A DNA stretch of 64,000 nt. Source: Escherichia coli. Its GTDB lineage: Bacteria > Pseudomonadota > Gammaproteobacteria > Enterobacterales > Enterobacteriaceae. The notes beneath the pieces are model-generated. The model worked only from the letters and a program-made list of their open reading frames with translations. It ran no database searches and was not told the DNA's origin. The translations under genes and the position numbers were made by a program. This document shows positions 2,503 through 35,929 of the stretch, in pieces. Each line of letters begins with the position of its first letter. Positions within the stretch are counted from its first letter, which is position 1. The stretch lies in NCBI RefSeq assembly GCF_048403405.1, contig NZ_CP183129.1, one strand, 5' to 3'.

Positions 2503-3046
2503 TCCTGAAGAAAAGACAACGCGAGCCTTTTATCCCCTGCCCGTCTTGGGGATGCTGCTGTTTTGCGCAGCCGGCGGCAGTCAGGCGGCATTAACGGTGG
2601 TGGCGGATTATGGCGGGCAACCGGCAGCACCTTTTTATGACGCGATAAATAATGCCCCGAATGAATGGACAGCAAAGCCGGCGTCCCGCCCTCTGCCGTC
2701 CGTGATGGCCCCGTCAATGGTGTTGCCGGTTGAGACACCGGAAATGACGCCGGGGGAGGTGGATGACCGCGTCCTGCATTTACCGGGGATTGGGGCACTG
2801 TATCTGGTGGGGGATGATCCGTTATCCCGGGCATGGCTCACACAGCACGCAGCCCAGCTGAATGCAATGAATGCGGCCGGGATGGTGGTGAATGTGAAAT
2901 CGGAAACCGGGTTACAGGCGCTTCAGGCGCTGGCTCAGGGAGGACTGCTCTCCCCAGCTTCTGGCACCGATTTAGCTCACCGTCTTCAGTTATCACATTA
3001 CCCAGTTCTGATCACGGAAACCGGGTTGACCCAGCAGGTGAAGTAA
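2492..3046 (+). CDS. conserved ICE protein (PFL_4695-like family, tentative)
   Basis: 184-aa secreted protein overlapping the previous gene stop; family assignment from memory only. Confidence 0.4.
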   Translation: MRNNPEEKTTRAFYPLPVLGMLLFCAAGGSQAALTVVADYGGQPAAPFYDAINNAPNEWTAKPASRPLPSVMAPSMVLPVETPEMTPGEVDDRVLHLPGIGALYLVGDDPLSRAWLTQHAAQLNAMNAAGMVVNVKSETGLQALQALAQGGLLSPASGTDLAHRLQLSHYPVLITETGLTQQVK

Positions 3047-3239
3047 TGTTACCGCCGATATGGCCTTCAGATGGGGTTGACTCCCCGGCATTCTGGTTGG
3101 CCGTGCTGATGTGGTGCGTGTTCTTTGTTGTGATGAGACTCCTGGGGAAAAAAAACCGTCCTGCCCGCCGTCATCGTCACTGTCACGGGAAAGAATCGCG
3201 TGTACCGGAAAAAGAAAATCCGTCAGATCCTCCCTGGGG

Positions 3240-3383
3240 TTGAGTGCAGTGAGCACATTGTTTTCCGGACGTGTCGGTGAATTTTCAAACAGTGTTTCCA
3301 GTGGAAACGCTGGATGATTTTTGAACACTGTTTCCACTGGAAACACCGGTGAATTTTTAAACACTGTTTTCCGGGGTAACACC
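3240..3383. promoter_or_regulatory. Array of about four 36-bp tandem units containing GTTTCC-N3-GGAAAC palindromes, upstream of traD; candidate operator array or oriT
   Basis: gtttccagtggaaac at 3294-3308 and gtttccactggaaac at 3330-3344, flanked by degenerate copies (ttttccggacgtg, ttttccggggtaac); related copy at 29781-29854. Confidence 0.55.
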
Positions 3384-3401
3384 AAAAAAGAGTTTGAGAG
3401 A

Positions 3402-5549
3402 ATGAGTGATCGTTATGTGATAGAGGCCTGGCTGCGACCGGCGGTGGAATTGAACAGTGCTCTGGTGTCCGGCGGGGCGGCGTTTGTGTGTGCGGTAGCG
3501 CCCTGGGCAGTGGCATTGTCTCCGTCCGTGAGTTATGTCACCGCCGGTGCGTTTGCCGGTTTTTCCGCATTGCGGGCACATCAGGGATTCCGGGTATTAC
3601 GTTACCGCCGGAATCTCCGGCGTCTGCCCCGCTATCAGGTGACGTCGGCACAGGTGCCGGTCAGCCGGCAGCGTCTGTTTCTGGGAAAAGGGTTTCAGTG
3701 GCAGCAAAAACACACGCAACGCCTGCTGGAAACCCAGCGTCCGGAAGTGGAGCGGTATGTTCAGCCGCCGGCACATTACCGGCTGGCCCGGCAGTTTGAA
3801 CTCCGTTTTGAATCCCGTTTTCCGGCGGTTTGCCGGCTTTTGCAAAAAGACAGTTGGCTGAATCCGGTCCGCCCGCTGACGCCGGTGGGGGGGAATCCGG
3901 TGTTACACGGTGTGGAGCCGGATGAGGTGAATGTGACCATGGATTTGCGTGAACGGGTTGGTCATATGCTGGTACTGGGGACCACCCGTGTCGGCAAAAC
4001 CCGTCTGGCGGAAGTGCTGATCACTCAGGATATCCGCCGGGGGAATATCACGATTGTTTTTGATCCGAAAGGGGATGCGGATTTATTGCGCCGGATGTGG
4101 GCGGAAGCGCATCGTGCGGGGCGCAGTGAGGAGTTTTATGTTTTTCACTTGGGCTGGCCTGATATCAGTGCCCGTTATAACGCCATCGGGCGTTTTGGCC
4201 GAGTATCGGAAGTCGCGGGGCGGGTTGCCGGCCAGTTATCCGGGGAAGGGAACAGCGCGGCGTTCCGGGAGTTTGCCTGGCGGTTTGTTAATATCATTGC
4301 CCGGGCACTGGTTGCTCTGGGGGAGCGTCCGGATTATGCCAAAATTTTACGTTATGTCACCAATATCGGGGAACTCTATCAGACATATTCGATGCAGGTG
4401 ATTAAAGCACAACTACCTGATTTGTTTGCCCAAATCGAGAATGCGCAGAACGCGCTGACGGTCGAGGATGTGCCCCGTCATCTGCAAAGTGATCCGAAAG
4501 CTGTGGCTATCTGGGCAACGGAGCTGGCGTTAAGTAGTGAGAAAGGGAAAAAAATCTATGATCCGATTTTGGACGGGCTGCGCAGTGCGATCCGTTATGA
4601 CCGGACCTATTTTGATAAAATAGTGGCTTCTCTGCTGCCGTTACTGGAAAAACTGACTACCGGAAAAACTGCCGCCCTGTTGTCGCCGGATTACACCAAT
4701 ATGCAGGATCCCCGTCCGATTTTTGACTGGCAGCAGGTGATTCGGAAAAAAGGGATTGTATATGTCGGGCTGGATGCGTTATCGGATGCGGAAGTGGCGG
4801 CAGCGGTGGGGAATTCCATGTTTGCGGATTTGGTCTCGGTAGCCGGGCATATTTATAAATTCGGGACTCAGGATGGACTGCCGGAGGATGAGCACGCCGG
4901 AAAATTACCGATCAGCCTGCATTGCGATGAATTTAATGAACTGATGGGGGATGAATTTATTCCGTTACTGAACAAGAGCGGCGGCGCGGGGATTGAAGTG
5001 ACGGCCTACACACAGACCTGGTCTGATATTGAAGCCCGGCTGGGGAATGCGGCGAAATCGGCGCAGGTCACCGGTAACTTTAATACGCTGGTGATGTTGC
5101 GTGTCCGTGAACTGATGACCGCGAAATTACTGACGGAACAGTTACCGGAAGTGGATATTTACACCAAAACCCTGGTATCCGGGATCACCGATATTTCCAA
5201 TCCGAGGCAGGGGAGTGATTTTACCTCCAATACCCAGGACAGGGTCAGTATGGTGGCTAAACCGCTGCTGTTACCGGCAGATATTATTCAGTTACCGAAA
5301 GGACAGGCGTTTGCGCTGCTGGAAGGCGGGAAGTTATGGAAAATCAGGATGCCCCTGCCGGCGGCAGAGGCTGATGCCCTGATGCCACCGGATTTACAAA
5401 AAATCGCACAGTATATGGAGAAAAATTACCGTACCGGCGAAACTTGGTGGACTGCGTCATCATTTTCGGATGCGCGGTATGACAGCGGCGGTATGAATGT
5501 GGCTGAGATGGCACCGGATACCGAAGGGGGCAACGATGGCAACTGCTGA
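3402..5549 (+). CDS. traD: conjugative coupling protein TraD-like (VirD4 family ATPase)
   Basis: Walker A GTTRVGKT, N-terminal TM segments, about 715 aa; start placed at MSDRYV after the repeat array with a gagag RBS. Confidence 0.85.
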   Translation: MSDRYVIEAWLRPAVELNSALVSGGAAFVCAVAPWAVALSPSVSYVTAGAFAGFSALRAHQGFRVLRYRRNLRRLPRYQVTSAQVPVSRQRLFLGKGFQWQQKHTQRLLETQRPEVERYVQPPAHYRLARQFELRFESRFPAVCRLLQKDSWLNPVRPLTPVGGNPVLHGVEPDEVNVTMDLRERVGHMLVLGTTRVGKTRLAEVLITQDIRRGNITIVFDPKGDADLLRRMWAEAHRAGRSEEFYVFHLGWPDISARYNAIGRFGRVSEVAGRVAGQLSGEGNSAAFREFAWRFVNIIARALVALGERPDYAKILRYVTNIGELYQTYSMQVIKAQLPDLFAQIENAQNALTVEDVPRHLQSDPKAVAIWATELALSSEKGKKIYDPILDGLRSAIRYDRTYFDKIVASLLPLLEKLTTGKTAALLSPDYTNMQDPRPIFDWQQVIRKKGIVYVGLDALSDAEVAAAVGNSMFADLVSVAGHIYKFGTQDGLPEDEHAGKLPISLHCDEFNELMGDEFIPLLNKSGGAGIEVTAYTQTWSDIEARLGNAAKSAQVTGNFNTLVMLRVRELMTAKLLTEQLPEVDIYTKTLVSGITDISNPRQGSDFTSNTQDRVSMVAKPLLLPADIIQLPKGQAFALLEGGKLWKIRMPLPAAEADALMPPDLQKIAQYMEKNYRTGETWWTASSFSDARYDSGGMNVAEMAPDTEGGNDGNC

Positions 5550-6285
5550 GGTACGTCAGGAAACCCCGCGTCACCCGGCAAAAGACCCCGGTTTGCCGGC
5601 TAAATTGTTGTGGCACTGGCCGTGGGCCATCATCGGGGTATTACTGGCCTCCTGGGTATGCAGTCTGTTGATTGAGTGGGTCGGGATTGCGTTTTTCTGG
5701 GCGGACGAAGGGGCGGAGCACAGCCGGCAGGTGATGTTAACCGAGAGCGGGTATCTGTCAGAAGGGTTTACCCGTAGTCTGCTGATGTCCAGTCCGGCGC
5801 AGTGGCTGGCTCATACCGTTGAACAGGCATACCGGTGGCTGTTTGTGGAGTCCGGGCTGATGGAGAGCTGGCAGAACGTGTATCCTGTCAGCGGGAATGC
5901 AGTTGCCCGTGAACTGGATGACTGGCGGATTTGGTTTGTGTCCGAGCTGAGAGACTATCTGCTGGCGACGGTTTATGTGACGCTGACCTTTTTTATCCGG
6001 GTGACTATTCTGGTGCTGTCGATGCCCCTGTTTGTTATGGTGCTGTTGGTGGGCATGGTGGAAGGCTTTAACCGGCGTGATTTGCGGCGTTATGGTGCCG
6101 GGTATGAATCCAGTTTTGTGTATCACCACGCCAAGCGTTTTGTTAAGCCGGCCTTTTTTGTTCCGTGCATGATTTATCTGTCCTGGCCGTCTGCCATTTA
6201 CCCTAATCTGGTGTTGTTACCGGCGGCTCTGTTGTTCGGGCTTGCGGTGGCAGTGGCTACCGCGTCATTTAAAAAATATTTATAG
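5536..6285 (+). CDS. ICE integral membrane protein (PFL_4697-like)
   Basis: Multi-TM 250-aa ORF overlapping traD stop; start at MATAEV. Confidence 0.55.
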   Translation: MATAEVRQETPRHPAKDPGLPAKLLWHWPWAIIGVLLASWVCSLLIEWVGIAFFWADEGAEHSRQVMLTESGYLSEGFTRSLLMSSPAQWLAHTVEQAYRWLFVESGLMESWQNVYPVSGNAVARELDDWRIWFVSELRDYLLATVYVTLTFFIRVTILVLSMPLFVMVLLVGMVEGFNRRDLRRYGAGYESSFVYHHAKRFVKPAFFVPCMIYLSWPSAIYPNLVLLPAALLFGLAVAVATASFKKYL

Positions 6286-6293
6286 GCGCTGGG

Positions 6294-6328
6294 CAGAGAC
6301 ACACAACACTTGTTTTTGTGTGTCTCTG
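6294..6328. terminator. bidirectional hairpin between convergent genes
   Basis: 12-bp perfect stem cagagacacaca / tgtgtgtctctg with T-rich loop. Confidence 0.5.
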
Positions 6329-6372
6329 TCAGCAGACAAGCGGCTAGGCCGCGCGTCAGTGGTGTGATGGGG

Positions 6373-6981
6373 TTATCCTGCGCTGATTGATGGATTGATG
6401 AGTGTGAGCAGTAAATAAAGTGGCGGGTTGTCTGTCGTGATGAGTTGCCAGCCACATTGTGTCAGCAGTTCAGCTAGTGCGGCGATATCACCTCCGATTT
6501 TTACAGGTAGGTGTGCGGTCTGATGACCGTCAGTATCAAAAGCCTGCTCCAGTGCATTTTTGGATAAACAGATGGTGTTGCTGAGCGTATCCGGGCTCAC
6601 CGCATGTCGTCTGTGCCACGATTTATCACTCAATAACTGATAGGCAAAGCCTGCCTCCTTGGCCGATTCAAGCGCATAAGTGAGCCGGAACAGATCGCTC
6701 TGCTCGTGTAATGCGCCTGTACAGGAGCGGTACAGATAATCCAGTTTTTGTGGCAGTTTGGCCCGGCTCCCCAGTGTACGTCCCTGTTGAAGCAGCCAGT
6801 CAATATCCGGCGTAACGTCACGGTCAAAACGGCGTTGCTTTTTGGCGGTTGCCAGCCAGCGTATTAAAAACAGGTTTTTCTGCATGTCGGACTGCACCAG
6901 CCCCTCCCTGCGGGCCAGATGCAGGGCAACCAGTGCACACCAGGCAAAATGCCCAGTTTTTCGGGTGATGGTCTGACTCAT
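6373..6981 (-). CDS. hypothetical protein, divergent from the pore-gene operon (possible regulator)
   Basis: 202-aa ORF on the opposite strand inside the transfer region, with AT-rich divergent promoter region 6982-7127. Confidence 0.5.
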   Translation of the reverse strand: MSQTITRKTGHFAWCALVALHLARREGLVQSDMQKNLFLIRWLATAKKQRRFDRDVTPDIDWLLQQGRTLGSRAKLPQKLDYLYRSCTGALHEQSDLFRLTYALESAKEAGFAYQLLSDKSWHRRHAVSPDTLSNTICLSKNALEQAFDTDGHQTAHLPVKIGGDIAALAELLTQCGWQLITTDNPPLYLLLTLINPSISAG

Positions 6982-7127
6982 AGGCTCACTTTTATTTATT
7001 CATTTCAGCTATTTTCGCAAAAAGCAAGCAATATAAAATTAAAAAATTTGGAAAACTAATTGTTTGCTGTTTTTTCTATCCGCCTTTTTTACCCTGACTC
7101 CACGTTAACCGTCTTTAAGGAGTCGTT

Positions 7128-7454
7128 ATGCGATTATTTTCTCCGCTTATTTCCCTGTTTGCGTTGGTTGTCAGTGCATTTGGGGTATTGCCTGCTCAGG
7201 CCGCTGAAAAAGATGAACTGGCGCTGACGTTAAAGCAGCTCGATCACATCCAGGCCAGCCTGGAGCGCGCCCGTATTCAGGCAAATCAGGACAATCACGC
7301 CCGTTTTTATTTTGATTATTCCCGCGCCTCCAGAGAGGTGGAGATTATCCGGCAGGGGATTGTCCGCTATCTGGAGCCTTCCCGGGCCCAGCCCACGGTG
7401 CCGGTTAATGTGGCGGAGCCGCTGCGCGGGGATTACCGCCGGGAGCAGCGATGA
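7128..7454 (+). CDS. ICE protein, RAQPRD-like family
   Basis: Signal peptide; SRAQP motif near C-terminus; good RBS aaggag. Confidence 0.55.
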   Translation: MRLFSPLISLFALVVSAFGVLPAQAAEKDELALTLKQLDHIQASLERARIQANQDNHARFYFDYSRASREVEIIRQGIVRYLEPSRAQPTVPVNVAEPLRGDYRREQR

Positions 7455-7690
7455 ATCCGTCACAGCAGGCGGCATTTGAGGCTGCTGCCGGCTCGGGGAT
7501 GTCTCCGGCTGTTCTGAATCTGTTGTGTATCGGGGCATTACTGGCGGTGCTGTTTTTATGGGCAGCCTGGGGACTGGTCGATGTTTACCGGGGCTGGGCA
7601 AATGAAAATGTTCGTACTGCAAGGGTGGGGCAGTTTGCTGTCCGGGCAGTGATATTACTGGTGGTCTGCATCTGGATGTTTGCCAGTTGA
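7451..7690 (+). CDS. small ICE membrane protein (PFL_4701-like)
   Basis: 79 aa, two hydrophobic helices, start overlaps upstream stop. Confidence 0.5.
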   Translation: MNPSQQAAFEAAAGSGMSPAVLNLLCIGALLAVLFLWAAWGLVDVYRGWANENVRTARVGQFAVRAVILLVVCIWMFAS

Positions 7691-8112: not shown

Positions 8113-8529
8113 ATGCAGACCATCGATTTTATGCCGGATCGCTTAAATGCAGAGCCCACCGTCTTTCGCGGATTTACCACCCATGAAATGTTTGCCGCCG
8201 CCGGTGTCGGTTGTGTGGGCGGGAGCGTTATCAGTATCCCGCTGTTACCGCTGGCCGGGTGGGTGATCCTGCCGACCGGCGCGTTGATAATGCCGCTGTT
8301 GGTGGTGTTTTTTGGCGGCACTTTTCTGACCCGTATCAAACGCGGAAAACCGGAAAATTATCTCTACCGCCGATTGTCCTGGAAACTGCAAACCGGGTTT
8401 GCCCGCACATTGCCGCTGACCGGACGGCTGACTGAAAAATCCCTCATCACCGTATCTCAGGGCTGGTTTTTACGCCGGACGCAGGCGCTGTCACTGTGCC
8501 GGTATATCGCCGGAGGCCGCCATGAGTAA
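8113..8529 (+). CDS. ICE membrane protein (PFL_4703-like)
   Basis: 138 aa with two TM segments, in operon. Confidence 0.5.
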   Translation: MQTIDFMPDRLNAEPTVFRGFTTHEMFAAAGVGCVGGSVISIPLLPLAGWVILPTGALIMPLLVVFFGGTFLTRIKRGKPENYLYRRLSWKLQTGFARTLPLTGRLTEKSLITVSQGWFLRRTQALSLCRYIAGGRHE

Positions 8530-9166
8530 ATTTCGTCATGCCCTGCAAAACCGGGACCAGCACATTCTGACACTGCGGATGATCTGCGGGGTGCTGGTGC
8601 TCTGCCTGTTTGTGGCCTTTGCCGGCTGGATGCGGGCGCCGGCTAAACTGACGATCCATAATCCGCCGGATTTGCGCTCCGGCAGTACCCGGGCATGGTG
8701 GGAAGTGCCGCTGCCGACGGTGTACGCTTTCAGCTTTTATATTTTTCAGCAACTGAATGCCTGGCCGAAAGACGGCGAGGTGGATTATCCGCGAAAGATT
8801 GCACAGCTCAGTGCCTATCTGACGCCGTCCTGCCGGGCGTATTTTGAGAAAGAGGCCGCTTACCGTACTACGCTCGGGGAGCTGAAAGGGCGTTCCCGGG
8901 TGGTGTATGAGATCCCGGGACGCGGGTTCAGTGAGGATAAAGTCCGGGTGATTGACCGGGATAACTGGATCGTGCGCCTGGATTTGGTAGCGGATGAATA
9001 TTTTAGCGCGGAGCCGGTCAAGCGAGCGACGGTACGTTATCCGGTGAAAGTGGTGCGCTGGGAGGGCGATCCGGAAAGTAATCCGTTTGGTCTGGCCCTG
9101 GACTGCTATGACGGGCTGCCTCAGCGTCTGGAAGCGGCGGAGCAGAATAAGGAGGTCAGTCAATGA
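8522..9166 (+). CDS. ICE protein (PFL_4704-like)
   Basis: 214 aa, N-terminal TM, translationally coupled. Confidence 0.5.
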   Translation: MSKFRHALQNRDQHILTLRMICGVLVLCLFVAFAGWMRAPAKLTIHNPPDLRSGSTRAWWEVPLPTVYAFSFYIFQQLNAWPKDGEVDYPRKIAQLSAYLTPSCRAYFEKEAAYRTTLGELKGRSRVVYEIPGRGFSEDKVRVIDRDNWIVRLDLVADEYFSAEPVKRATVRYPVKVVRWEGDPESNPFGLALDCYDGLPQRLEAAEQNKEVSQ

Positions 9167-10059
9167 GCATAAAACGTCATCTGACGGCCTGTGCTCTGGG
9201 GATTTCGGCGGTGTTTTCTGTGGCCGCTCTGCCGCTGCCGGTGCAGGCGGTAGAGCTGGTCCGCTGGGAGCGTATTCCGTTACCGGTTTCTCTGCATGTG
9301 GGGGAAGAGCGCATTGTGTTTGTGGAAAAAAATGTGCGTGTCGGTTTTCCACCGTCTCTGAATGAGAAACTGCGGATCCAGAGTACCGGAGGGGCGGTGT
9401 ACCTGCGGGCGGAAAGCGCCTTCCCGCAGACCCGCCTTCAGTTACAGGATGTGGAAAGCGGGGAAATCCTGTTGCTGGATGTGACGGCCACTGCCGGTAA
9501 AGGGAAGCTGGAGCCGGTGCGGGTGGTGTACAGCGGTGAAGTCAGTACGCAGCGTGACAGTCAGAGCGTCAGACGCAGCGGGCAGGCTGCGGGGGCAGCA
9601 GCCGATGCCGTACCGGAAAGCGTGGACCGCAAAGCGAAAACCCGTTATCCGGCGCCGTTACCGGTCTTACTGACCCGTTATGCCGCCCAGAGTCTGTATG
9701 CACCGTTAAGAACAGTGGAGCCGGTGTCTGGCGTACAACCTTTGCCACTGACCTTACCAAAAACACTGACAGCACTCTACCCGTCTGAACCACTGATCGC
9801 GCGGCCGCTGGCCGGCTGGCAGGCGGCGGAGTACCGGGTGGTGGCGGTGAAACTGACCAATCAGTCCGCTCAGAAAGTCGTGCTGGATCCCCGTCAGTTG
9901 CAGGGGCAGTTTGTCAGCGCCACGTTCCAGCATCAGTGGCTGGACGCGAAGGGCACACCGGAGGATACCACCACAGTGTATCTGGTGATGAAAGGCAAAC
10001 CGGATAAGGCGTTTCCTGCGGAGCCGCCTGTCCGGAGGACGGGAGGGAAAGCCCGATGA
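9163..10059 (+). CDS. ICE periplasmic protein (PFL_4705-like)
   Basis: 298 aa with signal peptide, coupled to neighbours. Confidence 0.5.
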   Translation: MSIKRHLTACALGISAVFSVAALPLPVQAVELVRWERIPLPVSLHVGEERIVFVEKNVRVGFPPSLNEKLRIQSTGGAVYLRAESAFPQTRLQLQDVESGEILLLDVTATAGKGKLEPVRVVYSGEVSTQRDSQSVRRSGQAAGAAADAVPESVDRKAKTRYPAPLPVLLTRYAAQSLYAPLRTVEPVSGVQPLPLTLPKTLTALYPSEPLIARPLAGWQAAEYRVVAVKLTNQSAQKVVLDPRQLQGQFVSATFQHQWLDAKGTPEDTTTVYLVMKGKPDKAFPAEPPVRRTGGKAR

Positions 10060-15335: not shown

Positions 15336-15429
15336 TGAAACGGGTGGAGCAGGGAGTGGGTAAACCGTGTTGCAGCACGGCTTACCCGGCCGCTTCATTG
15401 GGTATGTTAAAAAGAGGAAACATGACGTC

Positions 15430-17655
15430 ATGAAAACGACGGGAGTTAAAGTAACGCTTTTGTCGCTGGTTGTCAGTTATTCCTGCGCTTTACAGGCCAA
15501 AAACGTGTCACTGGGGGACACGGCCGTGGCCACGGGGCAGCACAGTACGGCTGTCGGTGAGGGCAGTATGGCGCTGGGGAACAATATGACGGCGGAACAG
15601 GCGCAGGCGGCGATGAAAGCCCAGAATGCCCTGTTGCAGAACAGGGCGCAGGCGCATGAGCAGTACATGCAGACGCAGGCCCTGTTTGACAGTAAATCGC
15701 TGGCGAACAGCAATATTCTGGAGCGTCAGGAAGCGATGAAACCGTTGTTGCAGCAACAGGAGACCCTGGCGGGTCAGCGTACCGCGCAACAGCAGCAGGT
15801 GACACAGGCACAGCAGGTCGCTGACCGGATGGCACAGATTTATGAACGCAATCTGGGGGCGGTTTCACAGATTGTGGATGAGAATTTTGTGGCGTTGTGG
15901 CAGCAGGGGCAGGCTGACCGTCTGGCTCAGGAAGTGAAAAAACGGGTTGAGCAGGATACGTCGGTCAGTAATGACACGCAGTTTTATGTCAGTTATGTTA
16001 ATGCCTATATTGAAGCGAAAACCAGAAGTGCTCTGGTTAATGAAACCATCAAAGAGAAAACCGGTTCTCAGATTACGACCAACTATCAGGGTGTGGCCCT
16101 GTCCCCGGTACTGAGTGCCGGCCACAGTGATAAAGCGATGCTGTGGTCGGATGCGGTCACGGACAGCGAGCAGAAGAAACAATTATCCCGTTTACACCTG
16201 AATACCGCGGCCCTGAAGGGCGTTGCCGGTTATCAGGAAGAGCTGGCCAAAATCGCCCTGATCACCTCTGCGGACGGGAAAAAGAATCTGTATCAGGCTT
16301 ATCAGAAAAATGCCCGGCAGCAAATTGAGCAGGGGCTCACCGGGGTGACAGAGGCCGGGAAGCAGATCCTGTCAGAGCTGTATCTGGATAACATCGATGA
16401 AGGCACCTTTAATCAGATGGTCAGCGGTATTTTCACCCGCTATGAGAATCAGCTGAACTACCTGATCCAGCTGGATAAGGTCAACAGTTTATCGCCGGAC
16501 AGCCCGGATTATGCCAAAGAGTTACAGCAACTGCTGGTACTGGAAAGCCGTCCCCGGGATAACACCGTCGGGCTGAATACCAACCCGGAGGCGCTGAAAC
16601 AAAAAGTGGATCAGTACCTTCAGGACAATGCGCTCAGTCACACACAGGCCATGTCGTCACAGGCCACACAGCTGAAACAGCAGTTATCGGCGGAAAAAGC
16701 CGTCACCGATCAGGCACTGAAGCAGGCAGAAACGCAACTCTCCCGGCTGGAAAAGGATCTCTCCGCGCTGGATACAAAGTTGTCTGATTTGCGTCCGACG
16801 CAATCCGAGCTGGAAAACATCCGGGATCTGGAGAAGGTGAAAGCCGAACTGGCGCAGAAACAGGCGGAATATCAGGCGGCGGATAAAGCCCTGAATGAGG
16901 CGCAGAGTACGCTGAGTCAGGGTAAACAGGCTGTTGCGGTCGGGGATAAGAGTCTGGCGCTGGGCGAAAAATCCGTGGCACTGAGTGTGGATGCCCGGGC
17001 GCTGGCGAAAAACAGTGTGGCACTGGGGGACGGCAGCCTGGCTGACCGGGATAACAGCGTGTCCGTCGGCCGTGAAGGTCAGGAACGTTTTCTGACGCAT
17101 GTGGCGGCCGGCATTGCAAAAACGGATGCGGTCAACAAAGGGCAACTGGATGAGGAGCGGGATGCGCGTATTGCCGGCGATAAGCAGACGCTGAAACAGG
17201 CCATGGACTACACCGATGTGAGCATTCAGTACAGTGAGGCGAAGATAAACAAGCGGATTACGGAAGAGCAGCAGGCCCGTATTGAGGGGGAGGAACAGAC
17301 CCTGGCGGCCGCAAACCGCTATACCGATGAGACGTTCGGGCAGGTGACCCACACGGTGCTGGACAATGCCCGGCAGTATACCGACCAGCGTTTCAGTCAG
17401 CTGGACAATAAAATCAGTCAGGTGGAGAAACGGGCCAATGCGGGGATTGCCGGGGTGACCGCAATATCTTCCATTCCGTATGTGAACAGTGAGCGTTTTT
17501 CGTTCGGGATGGCGATGGGGCATTACCGTGATGCACAGGCGATAGCCACCGGGGTGCAGTATAAGCCGACGGCCAATACCAATGTGCGCCTGAATGCGTC
17601 ATGGAATAACGGCGGCGATACCAGTATCGGCGCCGGGTTTGCGGTGGGCTGGTAA
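15430..17655 (+). CDS. trimeric autotransporter adhesin-like protein (YadA-type C-terminal anchor)
   Basis: Signal peptide; head-like repeats (SLALGEKSVALS...SVALGDGSLA), neck-like RFLTHVAAG motif, long Q/A-rich coiled-coil stalk, C-terminal beta-barrel anchor ending FSFGMAMGHY...GAGFAVGW. Confidence 0.65.
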   Translation: MKTTGVKVTLLSLVVSYSCALQAKNVSLGDTAVATGQHSTAVGEGSMALGNNMTAEQAQAAMKAQNALLQNRAQAHEQYMQTQALFDSKSLANSNILERQEAMKPLLQQQETLAGQRTAQQQQVTQAQQVADRMAQIYERNLGAVSQIVDENFVALWQQGQADRLAQEVKKRVEQDTSVSNDTQFYVSYVNAYIEAKTRSALVNETIKEKTGSQITTNYQGVALSPVLSAGHSDKAMLWSDAVTDSEQKKQLSRLHLNTAALKGVAGYQEELAKIALITSADGKKNLYQAYQKNARQQIEQGLTGVTEAGKQILSELYLDNIDEGTFNQMVSGIFTRYENQLNYLIQLDKVNSLSPDSPDYAKELQQLLVLESRPRDNTVGLNTNPEALKQKVDQYLQDNALSHTQAMSSQATQLKQQLSAEKAVTDQALKQAETQLSRLEKDLSALDTKLSDLRPTQSELENIRDLEKVKAELAQKQAEYQAADKALNEAQSTLSQGKQAVAVGDKSLALGEKSVALSVDARALAKNSVALGDGSLADRDNSVSVGREGQERFLTHVAAGIAKTDAVNKGQLDEERDARIAGDKQTLKQAMDYTDVSIQYSEAKINKRITEEQQARIEGEEQTLAAANRYTDETFGQVTHTVLDNARQYTDQRFSQLDNKISQVEKRANAGIAGVTAISSIPYVNSERFSFGMAMGHYRDAQAIATGVQYKPTANTNVRLNASWNNGGDTSIGAGFAVGW

Positions 17656-20941: not shown

Positions 20942-22419
20942 TGACAAACAGTTATCTCGAGTATTTTCTCACGCTGCTGGCCTGGGTGGTGAATAACGGA
21001 TTGTGGTCGGTACTGACCAGCACCGGGCTGTTTGCGCTGCCGCTGGTCTTTAAAGTGCTGGGGATCTGGCTGAAAGTGCGGGAAGAGGGGGAGGATGAGG
21101 GTAACAAAGGTTCACTGGCAATTGTGCGTATCGAGAACGCGCTTTACGGCGCCTTTGTGGTGATCCTGTTTTGTTGTGTGCCGTTGATGGAGGTGAGTGT
21201 CAGTACCCTGCAATTTGATACCAGCCGGACCAAAACCTGCGGCACCTGGACCCCGGTGAAGCCGGCGGAATCCGGTTACAGCGGCGTGGTGTCGTCACTG
21301 GATAATCAGACAGCCAAAATCCCGCTGTGGTGGATGCTGGTACATAAGCTGTCGAAAGGGGTGACTCAGGCGGCGGTGGCCAGCATTCCGTGCCGGCCGG
21401 ATTTGCGTCAGGTGCGTTTTGAGGTGCAGCACAGCAACATTAAAAATCCGGCGCTGGCTGCCGCACTTCAGGATTTTACGGATGACTGTTACTCACGTGC
21501 CCTGTATGACTGGAAAGCGAAAGATCAGGGAAAAACACAGGATGAAAAAACGTTACAGGATATCACCTGGATAGGCTCGGCCACCTTTATGAAAGGGGAA
21601 TATCATCAGATCCAGTCACGGACACCGCGGGCGGGCTTTCCCTGGGATGCCGACCGGGATGACGGGTATGCGAATGTCAACGGCAACGGTTACCCGACCT
21701 GTTATCAGTGGTGGAATGATGCGAATGCAGGGTTACTGAAACTTGTCAAAGAGCAGACCGATGAAGGGATGTGGCTGCGTGCCCGGGCGGCGATGAAGCT
21801 GATTAATAAAAACTCGAAAGAGTTTGAGGAGGCCATCGTCCGCCGGCTGGTGAGTCCGGCGAATCTGGATGTCTCCGGCGGCCGGGTATACCGGGGATAC
21901 GGGGGTAATGCGGATATGACGGTGATGAATGAGCTGGCCAGAATGGGAGGGGTAGCCGGGACTTCGCTGGCGTCACTGGGGGCATTCCCTGCCTTTGATA
22001 CGATGCGACAGTCCTTACCGATGGTGCAGGGGCTGATGTTAATGGCGGTGTATATCATGATCCCGATGGTGCTGATGTTTTCGGCGTATGAATTTAAGAC
22101 GGCGATAACGGTGACGTTTGTGATATTTGCGCTGAACTTTCTGACATTCTGGTGGGAGCTGGCACGCTGGATAGACAGCTGGATGATGGAGGCACTGTAT
22201 AATTCCGATACGCACAGTCAGTGGAATATGAACGGGCTTCAGAACACGTCTGATGATGTCATTATGAACCTGGTAATGGGAACGATGTTTTTGGTGTTGC
22301 CGGCGTTGTGGTTGACAGCATTTGGTTGGGCTGGAGCTAAAGTTGGGTCCGAGCTAGGTAATATGACATCTAACGCGACTTCACCTGCGCATAGTGCGGG
22401 GGGAAAGGAGGACAGTTAG
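20938..22419 (+). CDS. TraG-like conjugal transfer membrane protein (TraG N-terminal domain type)
   Basis: 493 aa polytopic membrane protein, last gene of the GC-rich pore block. Confidence 0.5.
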   Translation: MMTNSYLEYFLTLLAWVVNNGLWSVLTSTGLFALPLVFKVLGIWLKVREEGEDEGNKGSLAIVRIENALYGAFVVILFCCVPLMEVSVSTLQFDTSRTKTCGTWTPVKPAESGYSGVVSSLDNQTAKIPLWWMLVHKLSKGVTQAAVASIPCRPDLRQVRFEVQHSNIKNPALAAALQDFTDDCYSRALYDWKAKDQGKTQDEKTLQDITWIGSATFMKGEYHQIQSRTPRAGFPWDADRDDGYANVNGNGYPTCYQWWNDANAGLLKLVKEQTDEGMWLRARAAMKLINKNSKEFEEAIVRRLVSPANLDVSGGRVYRGYGGNADMTVMNELARMGGVAGTSLASLGAFPAFDTMRQSLPMVQGLMLMAVYIMIPMVLMFSAYEFKTAITVTFVIFALNFLTFWWELARWIDSWMMEALYNSDTHSQWNMNGLQNTSDDVIMNLVMGTMFLVLPALWLTAFGWAGAKVGSELGNMTSNATSPAHSAGGKEDS

Positions 22420-22493
22420 CAGAACAAGCTATTTCTAAAAAAGTTAACTAATAATATTTTGAAGCCAGCTGCAAAATTTAGTTTTGTGGCTGG

Positions 22494-22901
22494 CTAATCT
22501 TCGTCAATATTTATTCCGTTCATATAATATCCAAAACCTTGGTTGCCATTTCTAAAGTCGTCACTATTGCCAACGAGATTGGATTGCCATTCATTATTGT
22601 TATCAGTGGATTGAATGTTATTTCCTGAAGAAATATCAATGTGTTCTATTACAGAAAATAAAATCACCAACGCTCCAAAGGTAAATAGGATGTACAAACT
22701 GAAATAAGCCAGTAACGCGATGACTGCGAGAGTTATAGATACCAGTGGAATATGCCCCAGCCAACCCGGCATATTTTTGCTTTTGGCGCTTGCCACACAG
22801 TTCTTATCGAAAGCCTTCAATTTTTTGATTAGCCATTTTGCTTTATAAGCTGCTTTTATGCCCCAGCGTTCTCCTCTGGAAGCGGCTGTTTTATCACTCA
22901 T
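22494..22901 (-). CDS. hypothetical small membrane protein (AT-rich cargo)
   Basis: 135 aa, central long hydrophobic segment, Asn/Asp-rich tail, very low GC. Confidence 0.4.
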   Translation of the reverse strand: MSDKTAASRGERWGIKAAYKAKWLIKKLKAFDKNCVASAKSKNMPGWLGHIPLVSITLAVIALLAYFSLYILFTFGALVILFSVIEHIDISSGNNIQSTDNNNEWQSNLVGNSDDFRNGNQGFGYYMNGINIDED

Positions 22902-23243
22902 TTCCCCCTCCGGTAATCAGTGAGTCTGATTTATCTCATGCTTGTCGTCTATCGTTAATACAATTTTAGGTCGATTTTTAATCATTGTCTACATCTTGTG
23001 AGTTATGCACATATCCACGGTCACCAAGCCAGTGCAACCCGATGCCAACAAGCAATCGGGTAAACGGGAGCGTACAGGGCATCGGCCCTGATGGTGGCGG
23101 TGGGTATGTGTATAACTTTTTTGTTGCCTTCATATAAAAATCTTATTCTTTCATCTGGATGGATTTATTGAATTTGATTTTTTATGTCAGTTTAAGTAAG
23201 TTTTTAATATGTATCCGAGTCCTTGTATATAGGAGATGATAAT

Positions 23244-23543
23244 ATGAATTTTATTTTTTGGTTTGTGGTCTTAATAGGGGCGGGATATTTGTGGAGGAGG
23301 AGGGGTTGGTTCAGTAAAATAAGGAAGCAATACTCAAGGAGAAAAACAACATTAAATGGTAACAAAGGATGTTTATATAATAAAAAAAATGACAATGATG
23401 CTTTGGAAGGTAATGGGGATTGTAATAATTTTTATTCTGAGAATAAAGAAAGTTTCTTTTGGTTAATGATTGAGAGAGGTATTAAATTTTACAGAAAAGA
23501 ATATTTGACTACGATTACTGAAAAAAATATCATGATAAGTTAG
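23244..23543 (+). CDS. hypothetical small membrane protein (AT-rich cargo)
   Basis: N-terminal TM followed by basic stretch; RBS aggag 8 nt upstream of ATG 23244. Confidence 0.4.
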   Translation: MNFIFWFVVLIGAGYLWRRRGWFSKIRKQYSRRKTTLNGNKGCLYNKKNDNDALEGNGDCNNFYSENKESFFWLMIERGIKFYRKEYLTTITEKNIMIS

Positions 23544-23782
23544 TGAGCTGGTTTGGTGAGAAATGTTATATACATTGTCAGGTTAGTTTAGGGAGTTTAT
23601 TTATATTCCCAAAACAAAAAAATTTTACTGATGAAGAACAAAAACGTTTTTTTTCTGTTTGTAATAGAATGTCCTTGGATTTTATTTTAACATTTAAAAC
23701 TAATATGCCCTTCTTACGTGTTTCTGTTGACTCTATGAAAAATAAACCGCCTGTTTGGGATGTTTATGATAAATCCAAATAA
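23543..23782 (+). CDS. hypothetical small protein, overlapping previous stop
   Basis: 79-aa ORF, ATGA overlap with upstream gene suggests coupling. Confidence 0.3.
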   Translation: MSWFGEKCYIHCQVSLGSLFIFPKQKNFTDEEQKRFFSVCNRMSLDFILTFKTNMPFLRVSVDSMKNKPPVWDVYDKSK

Positions 23783-23957
23783 AAACATATCTGATTGTTG
23801 AGTTTTCGTGATTAAAGATGGCATTGATTATTAATACGATGAAGAACCAACAAGGGGATATTTAATAAAGAGAAAAAGGAGGATGTAAAATATTCTCCTT
23901 TTTCTTTATCGGGTATTGACGAAAAAAGAAAGTTTGATTAAATTTACCACGTTACAC

Positions 23958-24176
23958 CGTTGCTTAATGCAACATTGCCAATGCTTCGGTTGTCTGAGAG
24001 AAGCGCCTACGGGTGACAACAATGCCAATCCGGCAATCTGAGAGGAACGCCTACGGGTGATTGCCACTGCCAATCCTCGGGTCATCTGAGACGAGGGCCT
24101 ACGGGCGATGACAGAACTCCGTTCGTCCTTGAAATCGACGGAGGGTGATAACAGAATAGCGTTATCATCAGGATTA
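23958..24176 (+). repeat. Structured direct repeat copy 1 (three tandem hairpin units plus two further hairpins)
   Basis: Near-identical to 26392-26612; three about 45-nt units with stems gttgtc/gacaac, ggcaatc/gattgcc, gtcatc/gatgac around a conserved loop tgaga..gcctacggg. Confidence 0.8.
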
Positions 24177-24389
24177 ACTGCACTTCAGTGACCATGTCAC
24201 AGCTATCCGGTCACTCGGATATCCACAAAAAAGCAGAGTATGCGATAACGTGTATCTGCCTCTTCTGATGTGTTCTGACGAATACGTCCTGCTTTCTGCA
24301 ACCTTTGTATGCCCGGTATGACGCGTTTCCATTGCGCAGCTTTGGAAAGCGGCATCTTCGGAGCAATACATTGAGCAGCAGAATGATGG

Positions 24390-24436
24390 GCGTGCGTCAC
24401 TTTCGTCAAGTGAAACGAAGACAAAGTGACGCACGC
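24390..24436. promoter_or_regulatory. Long imperfect palindrome upstream of the recombinase-like gene
   Basis: gcgtgcgtcactttcgtc ... gacaaagtgacgcacgc, about 17-bp arms, no flanking T-run. Confidence 0.4.
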
Positions 24437-24824
24437 AAGTGCATACGCTCAGAACGCTTCAATACTGGTCTTACAGCAAAACTGACAATCTGACAGACAT
24501 GTAATGCATTGCTCAGAACGGCTGAAAGTCTTTCAACGCTCAACGTTTATATGATGATAAAAACGTATAACATTATGAAAAAAGGAGAAAAAACGACACG
24601 ATACCAAGGCGACGTCAGGAAACTGACGGACGGAGGTGCCCTGATAACGGGGGCCGGTCTGATGACCGCAAACAGTTCAGAGAACTGATTTGATACCTCT
24701 CAACAACTCAACCTTTTATCGCCCCGGTGCTCAGGTATCTGTCAGGTCGCAGGATGCGCAATATAAAACCGTCGCGCCGGGAAAAGGTAACCAGTTGAGA
24801 GCGAAAGAGGCGGAGAATCAGAGA

Positions 24825-25733
24825 ATGTCCAGAAGAGCAAAAGCCCTGTCCCGTGAAATGCATATCCTTGCACGTCAGGCCGGAGGGAGCTTTAAAACCA
24901 TTGCAGACCGGGTCAAAATTGCAGAACGGGTTGCGGCAGAGCTGGCCGGGTTGAATATTCAGATACGATCTGTTGAGCAACTGAAATCCCGCCATATTGA
25001 AATGTATATCCATGCCCGCAGAGAACAGAATATCAGTTTACGCAGCTGTCAAAACGAAATGTCGGCTATCCGGGCGATATTTCGTGTTGCCGGACGTCAT
25101 AAACTGGCTGACCCTAAACATGAGCGCCTCAGTAATGAGGCGCTGGGGCTTTCAGGTGCCAGCAGGGCTGGCACCCGTACCGCGATATCGGACGAGCGCT
25201 TTCACGAAGCGCTCGCTCGGATTGAGCCTTATGATCAGGGGGTGGCATTAACTATGCAGTTATCCCGTAGTCTGGGATTGAGAAATGAAGAAGCCGTGCA
25301 GTCAGTAAAATCATTACGGACCTGGCAACAGGCGCTTAAAAACGGTAAAGATCGCGTTCATGTGGTTTTTGGGACAAAAGGAGGCAGACCCCGTGAAGCA
25401 TTAGTGCCGGATAAAGCCCGTGTATTAACATTAATTAATAAAGCCATTGAATATGCGGATAAACATAACGGTTATTTAATTAATCGTCCGTCATTACATT
25501 CTGCCAAAGATCGTTATATTAATGTGATGCGACGGATAGGCGGATTTATTCACGAAGAATCAAATCATGGTTTACGGTATGCCTATGCTCAGGATGTTGA
25601 AAAATATTATCTCAGTCAGGGATTCAGTCAAAAGGAAGCCTATGCATTAACCTCCATGGATTTAGGGCATGGTGACGGTCGTGGCGATTATATTAAACGG
25701 GTTTATAGTCAGAAAGGAGATATTGAGGAATAA
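24825..25733 (+). CDS. tyrosine recombinase-like protein (integrase-fold)
   Basis: Motifs in canonical order: LGLRNEE (Arg), HGLRYAYA (HxxR), LGHGDGRGDYIKRVY (candidate Tyr nucleophile); start taken at ATG 24825 after aagaggcggaga, though the ORF could extend to 24690. Confidence 0.5.
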   Translation: MSRRAKALSREMHILARQAGGSFKTIADRVKIAERVAAELAGLNIQIRSVEQLKSRHIEMYIHARREQNISLRSCQNEMSAIRAIFRVAGRHKLADPKHERLSNEALGLSGASRAGTRTAISDERFHEALARIEPYDQGVALTMQLSRSLGLRNEEAVQSVKSLRTWQQALKNGKDRVHVVFGTKGGRPREALVPDKARVLTLINKAIEYADKHNGYLINRPSLHSAKDRYINVMRRIGGFIHEESNHGLRYAYAQDVEKYYLSQGFSQKEAYALTSMDLGHGDGRGDYIKRVYSQKGDIEE

Positions 25734-25740
25734 GATAAAA

Positions 25741-26352
25741 ATGAAAGTCTGTTTAATTATTTTGTTTATTAATTTTGCTTTTTGTTTTCCGTTAATGGCG
25801 AAGACGTTATTTTTAGGTGATTCATTAACGGCTGTTTATGAAATGTCAGCAAAATATGTTTTGGATGAAAAAATAAAAACAGAATATGTTTCCGGTTCGG
25901 GGTTAATAAATAAAAGTAAAAAAGATTGGATCGCTTTCGTGAATAATTTCGATTTGCGGGAGTTTGATAATGTGATTATTAGTCTCGGAACAAATGATTT
26001 TGTTCAATATGGTTCGGATGAATGGCTGAAATATTACAGTCTGGTATTTCAATTCATTGCTGAAATTCAAAGTGAAAATCCGTTAGCGACAATTGTCTGG
26101 ATATCTCCACCACATTTAAAAAATCCGGAACATGAACGTTATTTAATACATACCCGGCATATAATTAAACACAGTGCGATGTTATTAAATATTCATTATC
26201 TGGATATTAATCAGCCTCATATATTAGGAACGCAATGGCAATCTGTTATTCATAATGAAACTGTACGAACTGATGATGGAATACATATTACCCGTAAAGG
26301 GGGAGTACGGGTGATCAGAGAAGTGGTAAAAATCCTGAATGGGCAGGATTGA
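25741..26352 (+). CDS. secreted SGNH/GDSL-family hydrolase (esterase/acylhydrolase)
   Basis: Signal peptide then GDSL block (LFLGDSLTA), GTND block, C-terminal DDGIH; very low GC; RBS gagga. Confidence 0.6.
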   Translation: MKVCLIILFINFAFCFPLMAKTLFLGDSLTAVYEMSAKYVLDEKIKTEYVSGSGLINKSKKDWIAFVNNFDLREFDNVIISLGTNDFVQYGSDEWLKYYSLVFQFIAEIQSENPLATIVWISPPHLKNPEHERYLIHTRHIIKHSAMLLNIHYLDINQPHILGTQWQSVIHNETVRTDDGIHITRKGGVRVIREVVKILNGQD

Positions 26353-29780: not shown

Positions 29781-29854
29781 AAGGTGTTTCCCCGGGAAGC
29801 ACTGAACACATTTTAATCAGTGTTTCCACTGGAAACGCCGGTTGAAAATTAACC
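29781..29854. promoter_or_regulatory. GTTTCC-N3-GGAAAC palindrome pair upstream of ardC, related to the traD-upstream array
   Basis: gtgtttccccgggaagcac then gtgtttccactggaaacgcc followed by ggttgaaaattaacc (inverse of ggtgaattttcaaac at 3276). Confidence 0.5.
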
Positions 29855-31294: not shown

Positions 31295-32296
31295 ATGCCA
31301 AACTGGTGCTCGAACCGACTTGACATCACCTTACACAACGCGGCGGATATGCCGGCTCTTAAACACTGGATATATGCGGATGATGGGATACCCGCCTGGC
31401 AGACGGCGATAGCACAAAGTCTGCATTTGTTGCTGGCCGGCTGCGCGGGGATACTGAAACCGGTCAGACCGCTGTCTTTTCCGCCGTTACCGGAACTGAC
31501 TTCATACGGTGCAACCGGGCCTGTTTCCCCGGGAAACACGGCTTTCACGCACTGGGTTGACCTGCTGATGACTGCACCGGATTTGACACCGTCATGTTGT
31601 CAGCAAATCCATCAGTGGTATCAGATGTGGTTATCTGAAGGCGGGGCGTACCATTCCTGGGACTCGCTGACGGCGACGCAGAAAGCGAGACTGTCCCCGT
31701 TGTTATCGGGAAGCAGTTTTGACTGGCTTAACCGGTTTACCGGAGAGGATGAGAGCCGGGTGGCGACAGCCTGGGAGGATATTCAGTACCTTCGCAGTAC
31801 CGGAGAAGCCATACCGATGGATATGCGGACTCTGTTACCGACCAGCCTTGCGGCTGAATTACACGGTTTTAACGGCTGTTTATGGAAAACACCGGAGGTC
31901 ATCTGGCGGCAGGCGCGCTGGCAGGCGTTTGCCCCCGGTAACAGTACATATCACCTTTATCAGTGCCGTTATGGTGTGAAATGGCCGAACGGCAGTGGTT
32001 TTCACTGTATTGATGGCGGGTATGCGACGGAGTTATCCGCAGAGTTTGATACTCCGTGGGGGCCGCCGTCAGCAGCGGTTTTGTGTGCTCTGTCTGCGCG
32101 TTTCCGCTGTCAGGTCCGTCATGTCTATGCCGAAGAAGGCTGTGGTTTCTGCGGATACAGCGAGTATGACCATGGCCGGTTAACCGACCATGAATCTGAT
32201 GAGATTGAGTTCAGTGATGAAGAGAATGAGGACGGTTTCCAGGATGTGACGGGACCGGACTATATTCTTGATTCATTGCCACATTACGGAGGGTGA
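31295..32296 (+). CDS. hypothetical protein (N-terminus MPNWCSN; possibly DUF1281-like, unverified)
   Basis: 333-aa ORF, Trp-rich N-domain, acidic C-terminus. Confidence 0.45.
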   Translation: MPNWCSNRLDITLHNAADMPALKHWIYADDGIPAWQTAIAQSLHLLLAGCAGILKPVRPLSFPPLPELTSYGATGPVSPGNTAFTHWVDLLMTAPDLTPSCCQQIHQWYQMWLSEGGAYHSWDSLTATQKARLSPLLSGSSFDWLNRFTGEDESRVATAWEDIQYLRSTGEAIPMDMRTLLPTSLAAELHGFNGCLWKTPEVIWRQARWQAFAPGNSTYHLYQCRYGVKWPNGSGFHCIDGGYATELSAEFDTPWGPPSAAVLCALSARFRCQVRHVYAEEGCGFCGYSEYDHGRLTDHESDEIEFSDEENEDGFQDVTGPDYILDSLPHYGG

Positions 32297-35853: not shown

Positions 35854-35929
35854 TGGTGCCCGGACTCGGAATCGAACCAAGGACACGGGGATTTTCAATC
35901 CCCTGCTCTACCGACTGAGCTATCCGGGC
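35854..35929 (-). tRNA. pheV: tRNA-Phe (GAA anticodon)
   Basis: Reverse complement reads GCCCGGATAGCTCAGTCGGTAGAGCAGGGGATTGAAAATCCCCGTGTCCTTGGTTCGATTCCGAGTCCGGGCACCA, the canonical E. coli tRNA-Phe, 76 nt with CCA. Confidence 0.95.

Follow-up and report, generated by a model that had tools for sequence, protein, structure and literature searches.

Can a gene that lies against the direction of its neighbors in a transfer region be regarded as their regulator? This question is raised by positions 6373–7127 of a 64,000-nucleotide stretch of Escherichia coli DNA (NCBI RefSeq assembly GCF_048403405.1, contig NZ_CP183129.1), which is referred to below as the window. The original prediction described there an opposite-strand open reading frame (ORF) of 202 amino acids between two blocks of co-oriented transfer genes, with an AT-rich spacer of 146 bp, and both the coordinates and the description are exact. 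It further proposed that the ORF encodes a regulator of an integrative and conjugative element (ICE), and that the spacer contains the promoter of the downstream operon for the pore of the type IV secretion system (T4SS). The analysis described here separates these two proposals. The ORF belongs to the DUF2913 family and, judged from the comparison of related elements, is accessory cargo of a variable junction, while the spacer most likely holds the promoter of the element itself. Such a combination of a backbone promoter region with a separate cargo gene is the explanation which we consider probable.

The element

The transfer cluster around the locus is part of an ICE of the ICEclc/PAPI-1/ICEHin1056 type (mating-pair formation type G, MPF_G), located at a tRNA-Phe gene of E. 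coli. The genes for TraD (TIGR03754), TIGR03747, RAQPRD, TIGR03758, TIGR03745, TIGR03750, TIGR03746, TIGR03749 and TIGR03752 occur in this order, and all of them score above the curated cut-offs. The end of the ICE is marked by the tRNA-Phe gene at 35854–35929, which adjoins the integrase and TraI relaxase genes. The window includes the right-hand ~36 kb of the element, and its remainder (28 kb) is the core E. coli chromosome. Positions 5400–7600 are 100% identical to the chromosome of E. coli CRE287 and are present in 26 of 5,426 complete E. coli genomes, chromosomal every time. The CRE287 element carries the taaP adhesin gene within its transfer set and a siderophore-like cluster of non-ribosomal peptide synthetase and polyketide synthase genes on the left. 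Its gene content presumably matches that of ICEPm1 of Proteus mirabilis, and we take the element to be ICEPm1-like. The exact DUF2913 protein is found also in P. mirabilis, Morganella, Providencia, Klebsiella and Salmonella; an identical TIGR03747 protein is encoded by P. mirabilis ATCC 29906. A match to E. coli MS 69-1 was set aside, being confined to the chromosomal half of the window, with a different island present at pheV of that strain.

A junction with variable content

The DUF2913 gene and the spacer together fill the junction between the TIGR03747 and RAQPRD genes. A scan of genome contigs with TIGR03747 returned seven loci. In related elements, the flanks of this junction are conserved and its content is variable, which is the behavior of a cargo hotspot. 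DUF2913 stands alone in the window, in E. coli M19 and in a Morganella-type locus (L015). It is accompanied by an Ail/Lom outer-membrane protein in three loci (L012, L078, L090) and by a 116-aa protein in another (L013). In Xenorhabdus, the junction is occupied by an unrelated minus-strand ORF of 100 aa. DUF2913 is lacking from four ICEs of this type in Rodentibacter: in three of them (L019, L021, L022) the junction is empty, consisting of a ~130-bp spacer with no divergent gene, and in the fourth (L020) it holds a PD-T4-4-like AAA_15 ATPase gene with a partner gene. The latter insert, in an ICE of Rodentibacter trehalosifermentans, spans positions 4783–6956 of that locus and contains two co-oriented genes, one for an AAA_15/AAA_21 ATPase whose top match is PADLOC PD-T4-4_A (E = 4e-34), the other for a 263-aa protein without a family match.

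The gene may also be missing from very close relatives. The metagenomic sister ICE L109, in which TraD, TIGR03747 and RAQPRD are 98%, 91% and 86% identical to those of the window, has no trace of DUF2913 by tblastn, and its T4SS genes are still detected. T4SS genes are likewise detected in L078, in which the DUF2913 gene is frameshifted (an error of metagenome assembly is possible). The DUF2913 proteins of the window and of the variant closest to it have 80% amino acid identity, compared with 89–97% for TraD, TIGR03747, RAQPRD and TIGR03758; such faster divergence than in the backbone is expected of hotspot cargo. As a part of the explanation that we hold to be probable, and with the same degree of confidence, DUF2913 would be dispensable for the T4SS and would not act as its dedicated regulator.

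The junction has counterparts in Pseudomonas. The ICEclc gene at the same site, orf67800, encodes a protein of 134 aa with no family match; its deletion had no effect on transfer, and the site was termed 'permissive for gene loss' (PMC10018362). GI-Hotspot 8 is likewise flanked by traD and RAQPRD (PMC12629846). In the P. aeruginosa islands PAGI-2, PAGI-3 as well as LESGI-3 this hotspot carries mostly type III cyclic oligonucleotide-based anti-phage signaling systems (CBASS) and other recognized defense systems (PMC12629846), whereas the junction described here holds a single gene without a PADLOC match.

A second hotspot is visible between the DUF2859 and traD genes, at 9106–10229 of L013 and 9115–10609 of L015. 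It holds a gene for an Mrr_cat restriction-type nuclease, to which L015 adds ArdC and HigB/HigA-like genes. The equivalent gap in the window (3046–3400) contains only a palindrome array, described below.

The DUF2913 protein

In a cluster as rich in GC as this one, the length of the ORF is little proof: a spurious antisense ORF at 8447–9352 reaches 301 aa. Despite this, the gene is real, because the protein matches both a Pfam and a PHROG family, has 744 homologues and shows the substitution pattern of a coding sequence, with ratios of nonsynonymous to synonymous substitution (dN/dS) of 0.09–0.29 among five ICE orthologues. The original prediction recognized no motif in the protein; it is a clear member of DUF2913 (PF11140), scoring 61.9 bits where the cut-off is 23 (E = 9.4e-17), with residues 16–176 aligned to positions 13–172 of the 207-position profile. 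It also matches phrog_15786 (E = 1.9e-70), and its RefSeq label is already 'DUF2913 family protein'. An exhaustive profile search of the family gave 553 representatives at 50% identity, and the best 150 of these are all of 234 aa or less and have no fused domain. Across 49 sequences 29 columns are invariant, including H11, W14, C15, R41, W42, K48, Q49, R51, F52, C87, R99, E105 and W178.

The AlphaFold2 (AF2) model of the protein is confident (predicted local distance difference test, pLDDT, of 86.6). It predicts an N-terminal domain of five helices (residues 1–109), followed by a C-terminal domain (residues 113–193) that is small and of alpha/beta type. The isoelectric point (pI) is 8.9 for the whole protein, 9.85 for the basic N-terminal domain and 5.6 for the acidic C-terminal one. 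Comparison of the model with the PDB by Foldseek gave nothing below E = 0.03, and neither the single protein nor the family profile found a PDB sequence below E = 0.4. Recurrent weak Foldseek matches to histidine-kinase DHp-CA and ChpT-type proteins had TM-scores of ~0.2 and are not trusted. The Pfam search returned DUF2913 alone, the NCBIfam search returned no match, and PADLOC contained no defense family matching the protein at E ≤ 1. In the sequence and structure searches no helix-turn-helix, winged helix-turn-helix, ribbon-helix-helix or other DNA-binding fold was recognized, nor any nuclease, ATPase or other enzymatic fold. The check for a DNA-binding fold suggested with the original prediction is negative in this respect, and a fold unrelated to regulation, which would have spoken against the prediction, was likewise not found. 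In the literature, DUF2913 is named in two papers, each time in a table. Within the same probable explanation, DUF2913 would be a cytoplasmic two-domain protein without a recognizable fold. Our best guess at its role, of low confidence, is an accessory one in the interaction between element and host, exerted through nucleic acids or their binding partners.

Distribution of DUF2913

The family extends far beyond ICEs. By tblastn, DUF2913 occurs in 3,284 of 72,556 plasmid records (~4.5%), hosted mostly by Klebsiella, Salmonella, Enterobacter and Serratia. A total of 2,296 of these 3,284 records are typed as conjugative, and most of the 3,284 are without this type of T4SS. The plasmids examined include IncF, IncR and non-mobilizable replicons. 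In about 11 plasmid contexts (among loci L002–L010 and L141–L144), the gene lies near rep/par and never adjoins T4SS or tra genes. There it typically takes the second place in a gene pair, the stop and start codons of which often overlap. The first place is held by a gene for a small phrog_26837 protein or, in two cases, for a member of the ProQ/FinO family or, in one case, of the H-NS family; comparison of the phrog_26837 partners with ProQ/FinO revealed no similarity. CbpA/CbpM genes are located nearby in one context. In six of the ~11 contexts a gene for an Rpn nuclease is convergent with DUF2913, and the 3′ ends of the two sometimes overlap. Up to five DUF2913 copies are present on one Hafnia plasmid.

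The plasmid proteins (WP_004152389 on pKpQIL-like IncFII(K) plasmids, and those of pKPC-LK30 and pSLT-like Salmonella plasmids) fall within the same Pfam family, are of similar length, are 51–58% identical to the window protein and have its conserved residues in common. The difference lies in the surroundings: the plasmid gene is the second of a pair and often converges on Rpn, whereas the ICE copy is alone, divergent from the T4SS operon and without an adjoining Rpn gene, the Rpn gene of the ICE being ~50 kb away (21995–22942 of locus L025, the left arm of the CRE287 element). A distant homologue of 28% identity is chromosomal, directly downstream of moaB/moaC/moaD/moaE-type genes on a metagenome contig (L029), so that the family is not confined to mobile elements.

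The spacer and the putative promoter of the pore operon

The GC content of the spacer is far below the 50–60% of the flanking genes, and A/T tracts are present in it. Its position corresponds to that of a known promoter. The RAQPRD gene of ICEclc, orf67231, is directly preceded by the transfer-competence promoter P67231 (PMC10018362, PMC9286271, PMC12409273), and the transfer-competence promoters are activated jointly by BisC, a DUF2857 protein, and BisD, which carries a ParB domain (PMC7423338). The spacer of the window is likewise directly upstream of RAQPRD, and the element encodes a similar pair: in the left arm of the CRE287 copy, outside the window, a gene for a 549-aa ParB-family protein adjoins one for a 196-aa DUF2857 protein, along with ParA and AlpA genes.

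The likeness to ICEclc extends along the region. Both elements have, in succession, TraD/IceD4, TIGR03747 (DUF4400; orf68241 in ICEclc, as RAQPRD is orf67231; PMC10018362, Table 1), a small non-essential gene at the variable site, a spacer with a promoter (putative in the element described here), RAQPRD, TIGR03758, the pilin candidate TIGR03745, DUF3487 and VirB8/9/10-like genes, and both have BisD/BisC-type genes. They differ in the occupant of the site, which is DUF2913 on the minus strand here and orf67800 in ICEclc of Pseudomonas knackmussii/putida, and in composition, the enterobacterial sequences being AT-rich and those of Pseudomonas GC-rich; for the element described here, promoter activity and the dependence on BisDC are what the likeness would predict.

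Conservation within the spacer points in the same direction. A block of the form AATTGTTTGCTG-N19-TTACCCTG, found ~30–70 nt upstream of RAQPRD and ending 31 nt before its ATG, was aligned in eight enterobacterial sequences, in all of which AATTGTTTGCTG is invariant and TTACCCTG nearly so. These include L109, which has no DUF2913, and the block is kept in the most distant of the eight elements, whose RAQPRD protein is only ~74% identical. Spacers of 130–290 bp are maintained at this junction even where it is empty. A consensus scan of 6100–7300 called no terminator and no sigma-70 promoter; the lack of a sigma-70 consensus fits an activator-dependent promoter. The relaxed scan gave one −10 candidate for each direction (Table 1). 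The aligned plus-strand position reads TAAAAT, AAAAAT or CAAAAT across the variants; the minus-strand extended −10 position reads TGCAATAAT in L013 and L015, and the motif persists in L109. Two further candidates were rejected. As a repeated regulatory box, AATTGTTTGCTG is not enriched (6 matches in the window against 8.5 expected), and the conserved block does not recur in the rest of the window. A sigma-54 reading of TGG...TTGC in the spacer was dismissed by eye, since the spacing is wrong and L013 and L015 do not conserve the motif.

By analogy with ICEclc, the promoter from which the element itself drives the pilus and pore operon most likely lies in the spacer. This part of the original prediction stands on the position shared with ICEclc, the conserved block and the covarying hairpin that would separate the upstream operon. 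In the mechanism proposed, the last ~70–110 bp before the RAQPRD start would be the positional equivalent of P67231, which in ICEclc is switched on by BisDC and initiates the operon that encodes the pilin candidate along with VirB3/8/9/10-like proteins. The promoter here would work in the same way, being weak and fired by the ParB-family/DUF2857 (BisD/BisC-like) pair of the element. The hairpin element at 6288–6357 would insulate it from the upstream traD-TIGR03747 operon, and the DUF2913 gene would be read outward from a promoter of its own within the same spacer.

A covarying hairpin element

The double hairpin between the convergent ends of the TIGR03747 and DUF2913 genes has stable stems, with a fold z-score of −3.9 for the plus and −6.3 for the minus strand. 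Across seven distinct variants, 98% of cells are paired. Compensatory double changes occur in 8 of the 17 pairs of hairpin 1, a number reached in none of 500 shuffles, and slid controls give at most 2. In divergent ICEs the stems of hairpin 1 differ yet stay complementary, with no variation in hairpin 2 or in the flanks. Each ICE locus has the element once, always after the last plus-strand gene, whichever gene this is. Because it follows the last plus-strand gene and is present also in L109, it is a part of the backbone rather than of the DUF2913 cargo. A scan of metagenomes with a 17-mer confirmed seven true copies in the returned loci; the other 17-mer matches, without the rest of the element, are presumed to be due to chance. 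The Rfam search of 6100–7300 found no family, its sole match being a chance snoRNA (E = 2.8). The element is probably a terminator-like insulator, which would close the traD operon.

Weighing of the alternatives

The proposal that DUF2913 is a transcription factor with an unseen DNA-binding fold, which controls the RAQPRD/pore operon and itself through the spacer, is in our view improbable. The observations on its side are at the same time those that weigh against the explanation preferred here. The gene is divergent from RAQPRD in every DUF2913-bearing ICE copy, over a range of 60% to 100% identity; the basic N-terminal domain has many invariant Arg and Lys residues (with K48, Q49, R51, R41, R99 and others kept), as a local regulator would show; and the failed searches are compatible with a DNA-binding fold of a new kind. 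Added to these are the absence of a U-run after the stems of 6288–6357 on either strand, so that no canonical intrinsic terminator is formed, and the fact that we infer the promoter positions, the dependence on BisDC and the termination at the hairpins. On plasmids, too, the gene upstream of DUF2913 is sometimes that of a nucleic-acid-binding global regulator. The reading is nevertheless unsupported, since the family is not tied to the T4SS, the gene appears dispensable, the spacer lacks repeats and the element encodes regulators of its own. No direct or inverted repeat of at least 8 nt, as the operator of an autoregulator would require, is present in 6960–7140. Sister ICEs without the gene, or with a frameshifted copy, retain the RAQPRD-proximal block unchanged. 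Homologues of ~55% identity live on plasmids away from tra genes, non-mobilizable ones included, and distant ones on chromosomes, such as that beside the moa genes; genes for a BisDC-type activator already exist in the ICE. Such BisD/BisC-type candidates are the regulators to be expected in this ICE family. A broader version would make DUF2913 a portable nucleic-acid-binding regulator of mobile elements with a new fold, acting on the divergent RAQPRD promoter in ICEs and together with FinO/ProQ, H-NS or phrog_26837 partners and Rpn on plasmids. To this we assign an equally small probability; if true, the divergent arrangement would be functional rather than an accident of insertion.

The two other rivals bear on the halves of the explanation separately. 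One accepts the cargo and gives it a part in conflict, either as an anti-defense factor that would assist the establishment of the ICE or plasmid in new hosts or as a defense or accessory component working with Rpn-type nucleases. We regard it as unlikely, though less so than the regulator: the same junction bears the PD-T4-4-like insert in L020 and CBASS with other systems in GI-Hotspot 8 of Pseudomonas (PMC12629846), neighboring ICE hotspots contain Mrr-type nuclease, ArdC and HigBA-like genes, a convergent Rpn gene abuts DUF2913 in the six plasmid contexts given above, the protein evolves faster than those of the backbone, and the Hafnia plasmid has its multiple copies. Set against this, the protein has neither a PADLOC match nor a recognized enzymatic fold, its overall pI is not that of an acidic DNA mimic, the plasmid copies are situated near rep/par and not beside transfer genes, and the ICE copy lacks the adjoining Rpn gene. 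The other rival denies a T4SS promoter in the spacer, which would then serve DUF2913 alone; transcription of the RAQPRD operon would then come by read-through from the traD promoter, and the hairpin would do no more than stabilize the RNA. The empty scan of 6100–7300, the hairpins without a U-run and the three operator-like palindromic repeats upstream of traD, with none in the spacer, agree with such a scheme. It is rendered distinctly unlikely by the verified ICEclc promoter at the homologous position (PMC10018362, PMC9286271), by the convergent, oppositely transcribed gene of 609 bp that intervenes, and by the non-coding block beside RAQPRD and the spacers, which persist in the variant without DUF2913 and at the empty junction, respectively. 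The combination of a backbone promoter region and a separate cargo gene remains the explanation preferred here.

Features of the locus and its surroundings

The coordinates of the features are collected in Table 1. On the plus strand, RAQPRD is followed by the genes for TIGR03758, TIGR03745, TIGR03750, PFL_4703, TIGR03749 and TIGR03752.

Table 1. Positions of the features discussed, numbered along the window unless stated otherwise
Feature	Position	Strand	Remarks
Palindrome, three 36-bp tandem repeats	3293, 3329, 3365 (3293–3381)		Immediately upstream of traD ATG
TraD gene	3321–5549	+	Upstream, co-oriented with the transfer genes
TIGR03747/DUF4400 (DtrJ-like) membrane protein gene	5497–6285	+	Last backbone gene before the hotspot
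Double-hairpin element, ~70 nt	6288–6357	.	Between the stops of TIGR03747 (6285) and DUF2913 (6373)
DUF2913-family gene	6373–6981	−	202 aa, ATG start
AT-rich divergent intergenic spacer	6982–7127	.	146 bp, 32.2% GC
Putative back-to-back promoters of DUF2913 (−) and of the RAQPRD-pilin-VirB8/9/10-like operon (+)	6982–7127	.	Suggested by GC content, conservation and ICEclc position
Extended −10 candidate TGCGAAAAT, DUF2913 gene	7011–7019	−	Relaxed scan, putative; weak
Loose −10 candidate TAAAAT, RAQPRD operon	7034–7039	+	Relaxed scan, putative; partly conserved
Conserved block AATTGTTTGCTG-N19-TTACCCTG	7058–7096	+	Candidate activator-dependent promoter core or leader element
Shine-Dalgarno AAGGAG, RAQPRD gene	7117–7122	+	Read from the sequence
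RAQPRD-family gene	7128–7454	+	First gene of the downstream T4SS operon
Palindrome, weaker copy	28128
Palindrome, two copies	29785, 29821 (29785–29837)		Upstream of ardC
Palindrome	31522–31538		Within the DUF1281 ORF as annotated, in its 5′ part
Palindrome	32998–33014		Within the traI ORF, at its 5′ end
Palindrome, triple array and single copy	Left arm of the ICE		Upstream of the PFL_4669/topB operon, near STY4528

The traD ORF as called mechanically begins with a TTG at 3321, overlaps the palindrome array and is intact, with 742 aa. The ATG at 3403, which is the start given by the NCBI Prokaryotic Genome Annotation Pipeline in the CRE287 copy, is more likely the truer start. In RefSeq, the traD of CRE287 is flagged as frameshifted; the ORF of the window is intact.

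At least 11 copies of a 17-bp palindrome, TGTTTCC-N3-GGAAACA, are present, most of them ahead of operons (traD, ardC, traI and the topB operon), and the clear ones are all inside the ICE. With up to 2 substitutions allowed, the ICE part of the window has 7 copies, whereas the 28 kb of chromosome have none. For the fuller form TGTTTCCCNGGGAAACA, with up to 3 mismatches allowed, the window has 9 matches where 0.31 are expected, a number that none of 100 shuffles reaches. Four clear further copies lie in the left arm (27814–28729 of L025). The 146-bp spacer of the window has no copy. In the same junction of relatives, a copy lies upstream of RAQPRD, at a distance of 173 bp in L109 and of 98 bp in L090, and in L013 and L015 one is found just 3′ of DUF2913. 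The palindrome resembles the chromosomal parS, TGTTCCACGTGGAACN (quoted in PMC12409273), which makes it a plausible target of a ParB-family protein of the ICE; the plausible candidate for binding or loading at this site is the 549-aa BisD-like protein. ParB-type global regulators with dispersed palindromes are likewise known in BisD-bisS of ICEclc and KorB-OB of RK2 (PMC12409273). In comparison with the ICEclc bisS (GAGCTATCCCCnGGGGATAGCTC), the palindrome described here differs in sequence, some of its copies form 36-bp tandem arrays, and its binding is predicted.

Two further regions of the ICE may be mentioned. At 15367–17655, inside the T4SS cluster and between the genes for a VirB4-like ATPase and TIGR03757, lies a gene for a trimeric autotransporter adhesin, annotated as taaP in the RefSeq record of the identical E. 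coli copy. The region 22000–26000 has a GC content of 32–49%, compared with 52–63% in the transfer cluster, and contains small hypothetical genes and genes for an integrase-domain protein and an SGNH/GDSL hydrolase. It is probably further cargo.

Significance

The hotspot has already been published, DUF2913 has already been annotated, and the counterpart of the promoter has already been studied in ICEclc. The locus matters little as it stands, and its modest value comes from the spread of DUF2913 and from the variants with and without it. We know of no published work on the regulation of ICEPm1-type elements, for which the covarying hairpin and the ICE-wide parS-like palindrome provide handles. 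The natural pair formed by the window and L109, with and without the gene, is suited to a clean test of the effect of DUF2913 on conjugation. A role for DUF2913, once defined, would annotate thousands of clinically relevant replicons, including the pKpQIL-like KPC plasmids of Klebsiella, as well as the ICEs common to E. coli, Proteus, Morganella and Providencia.

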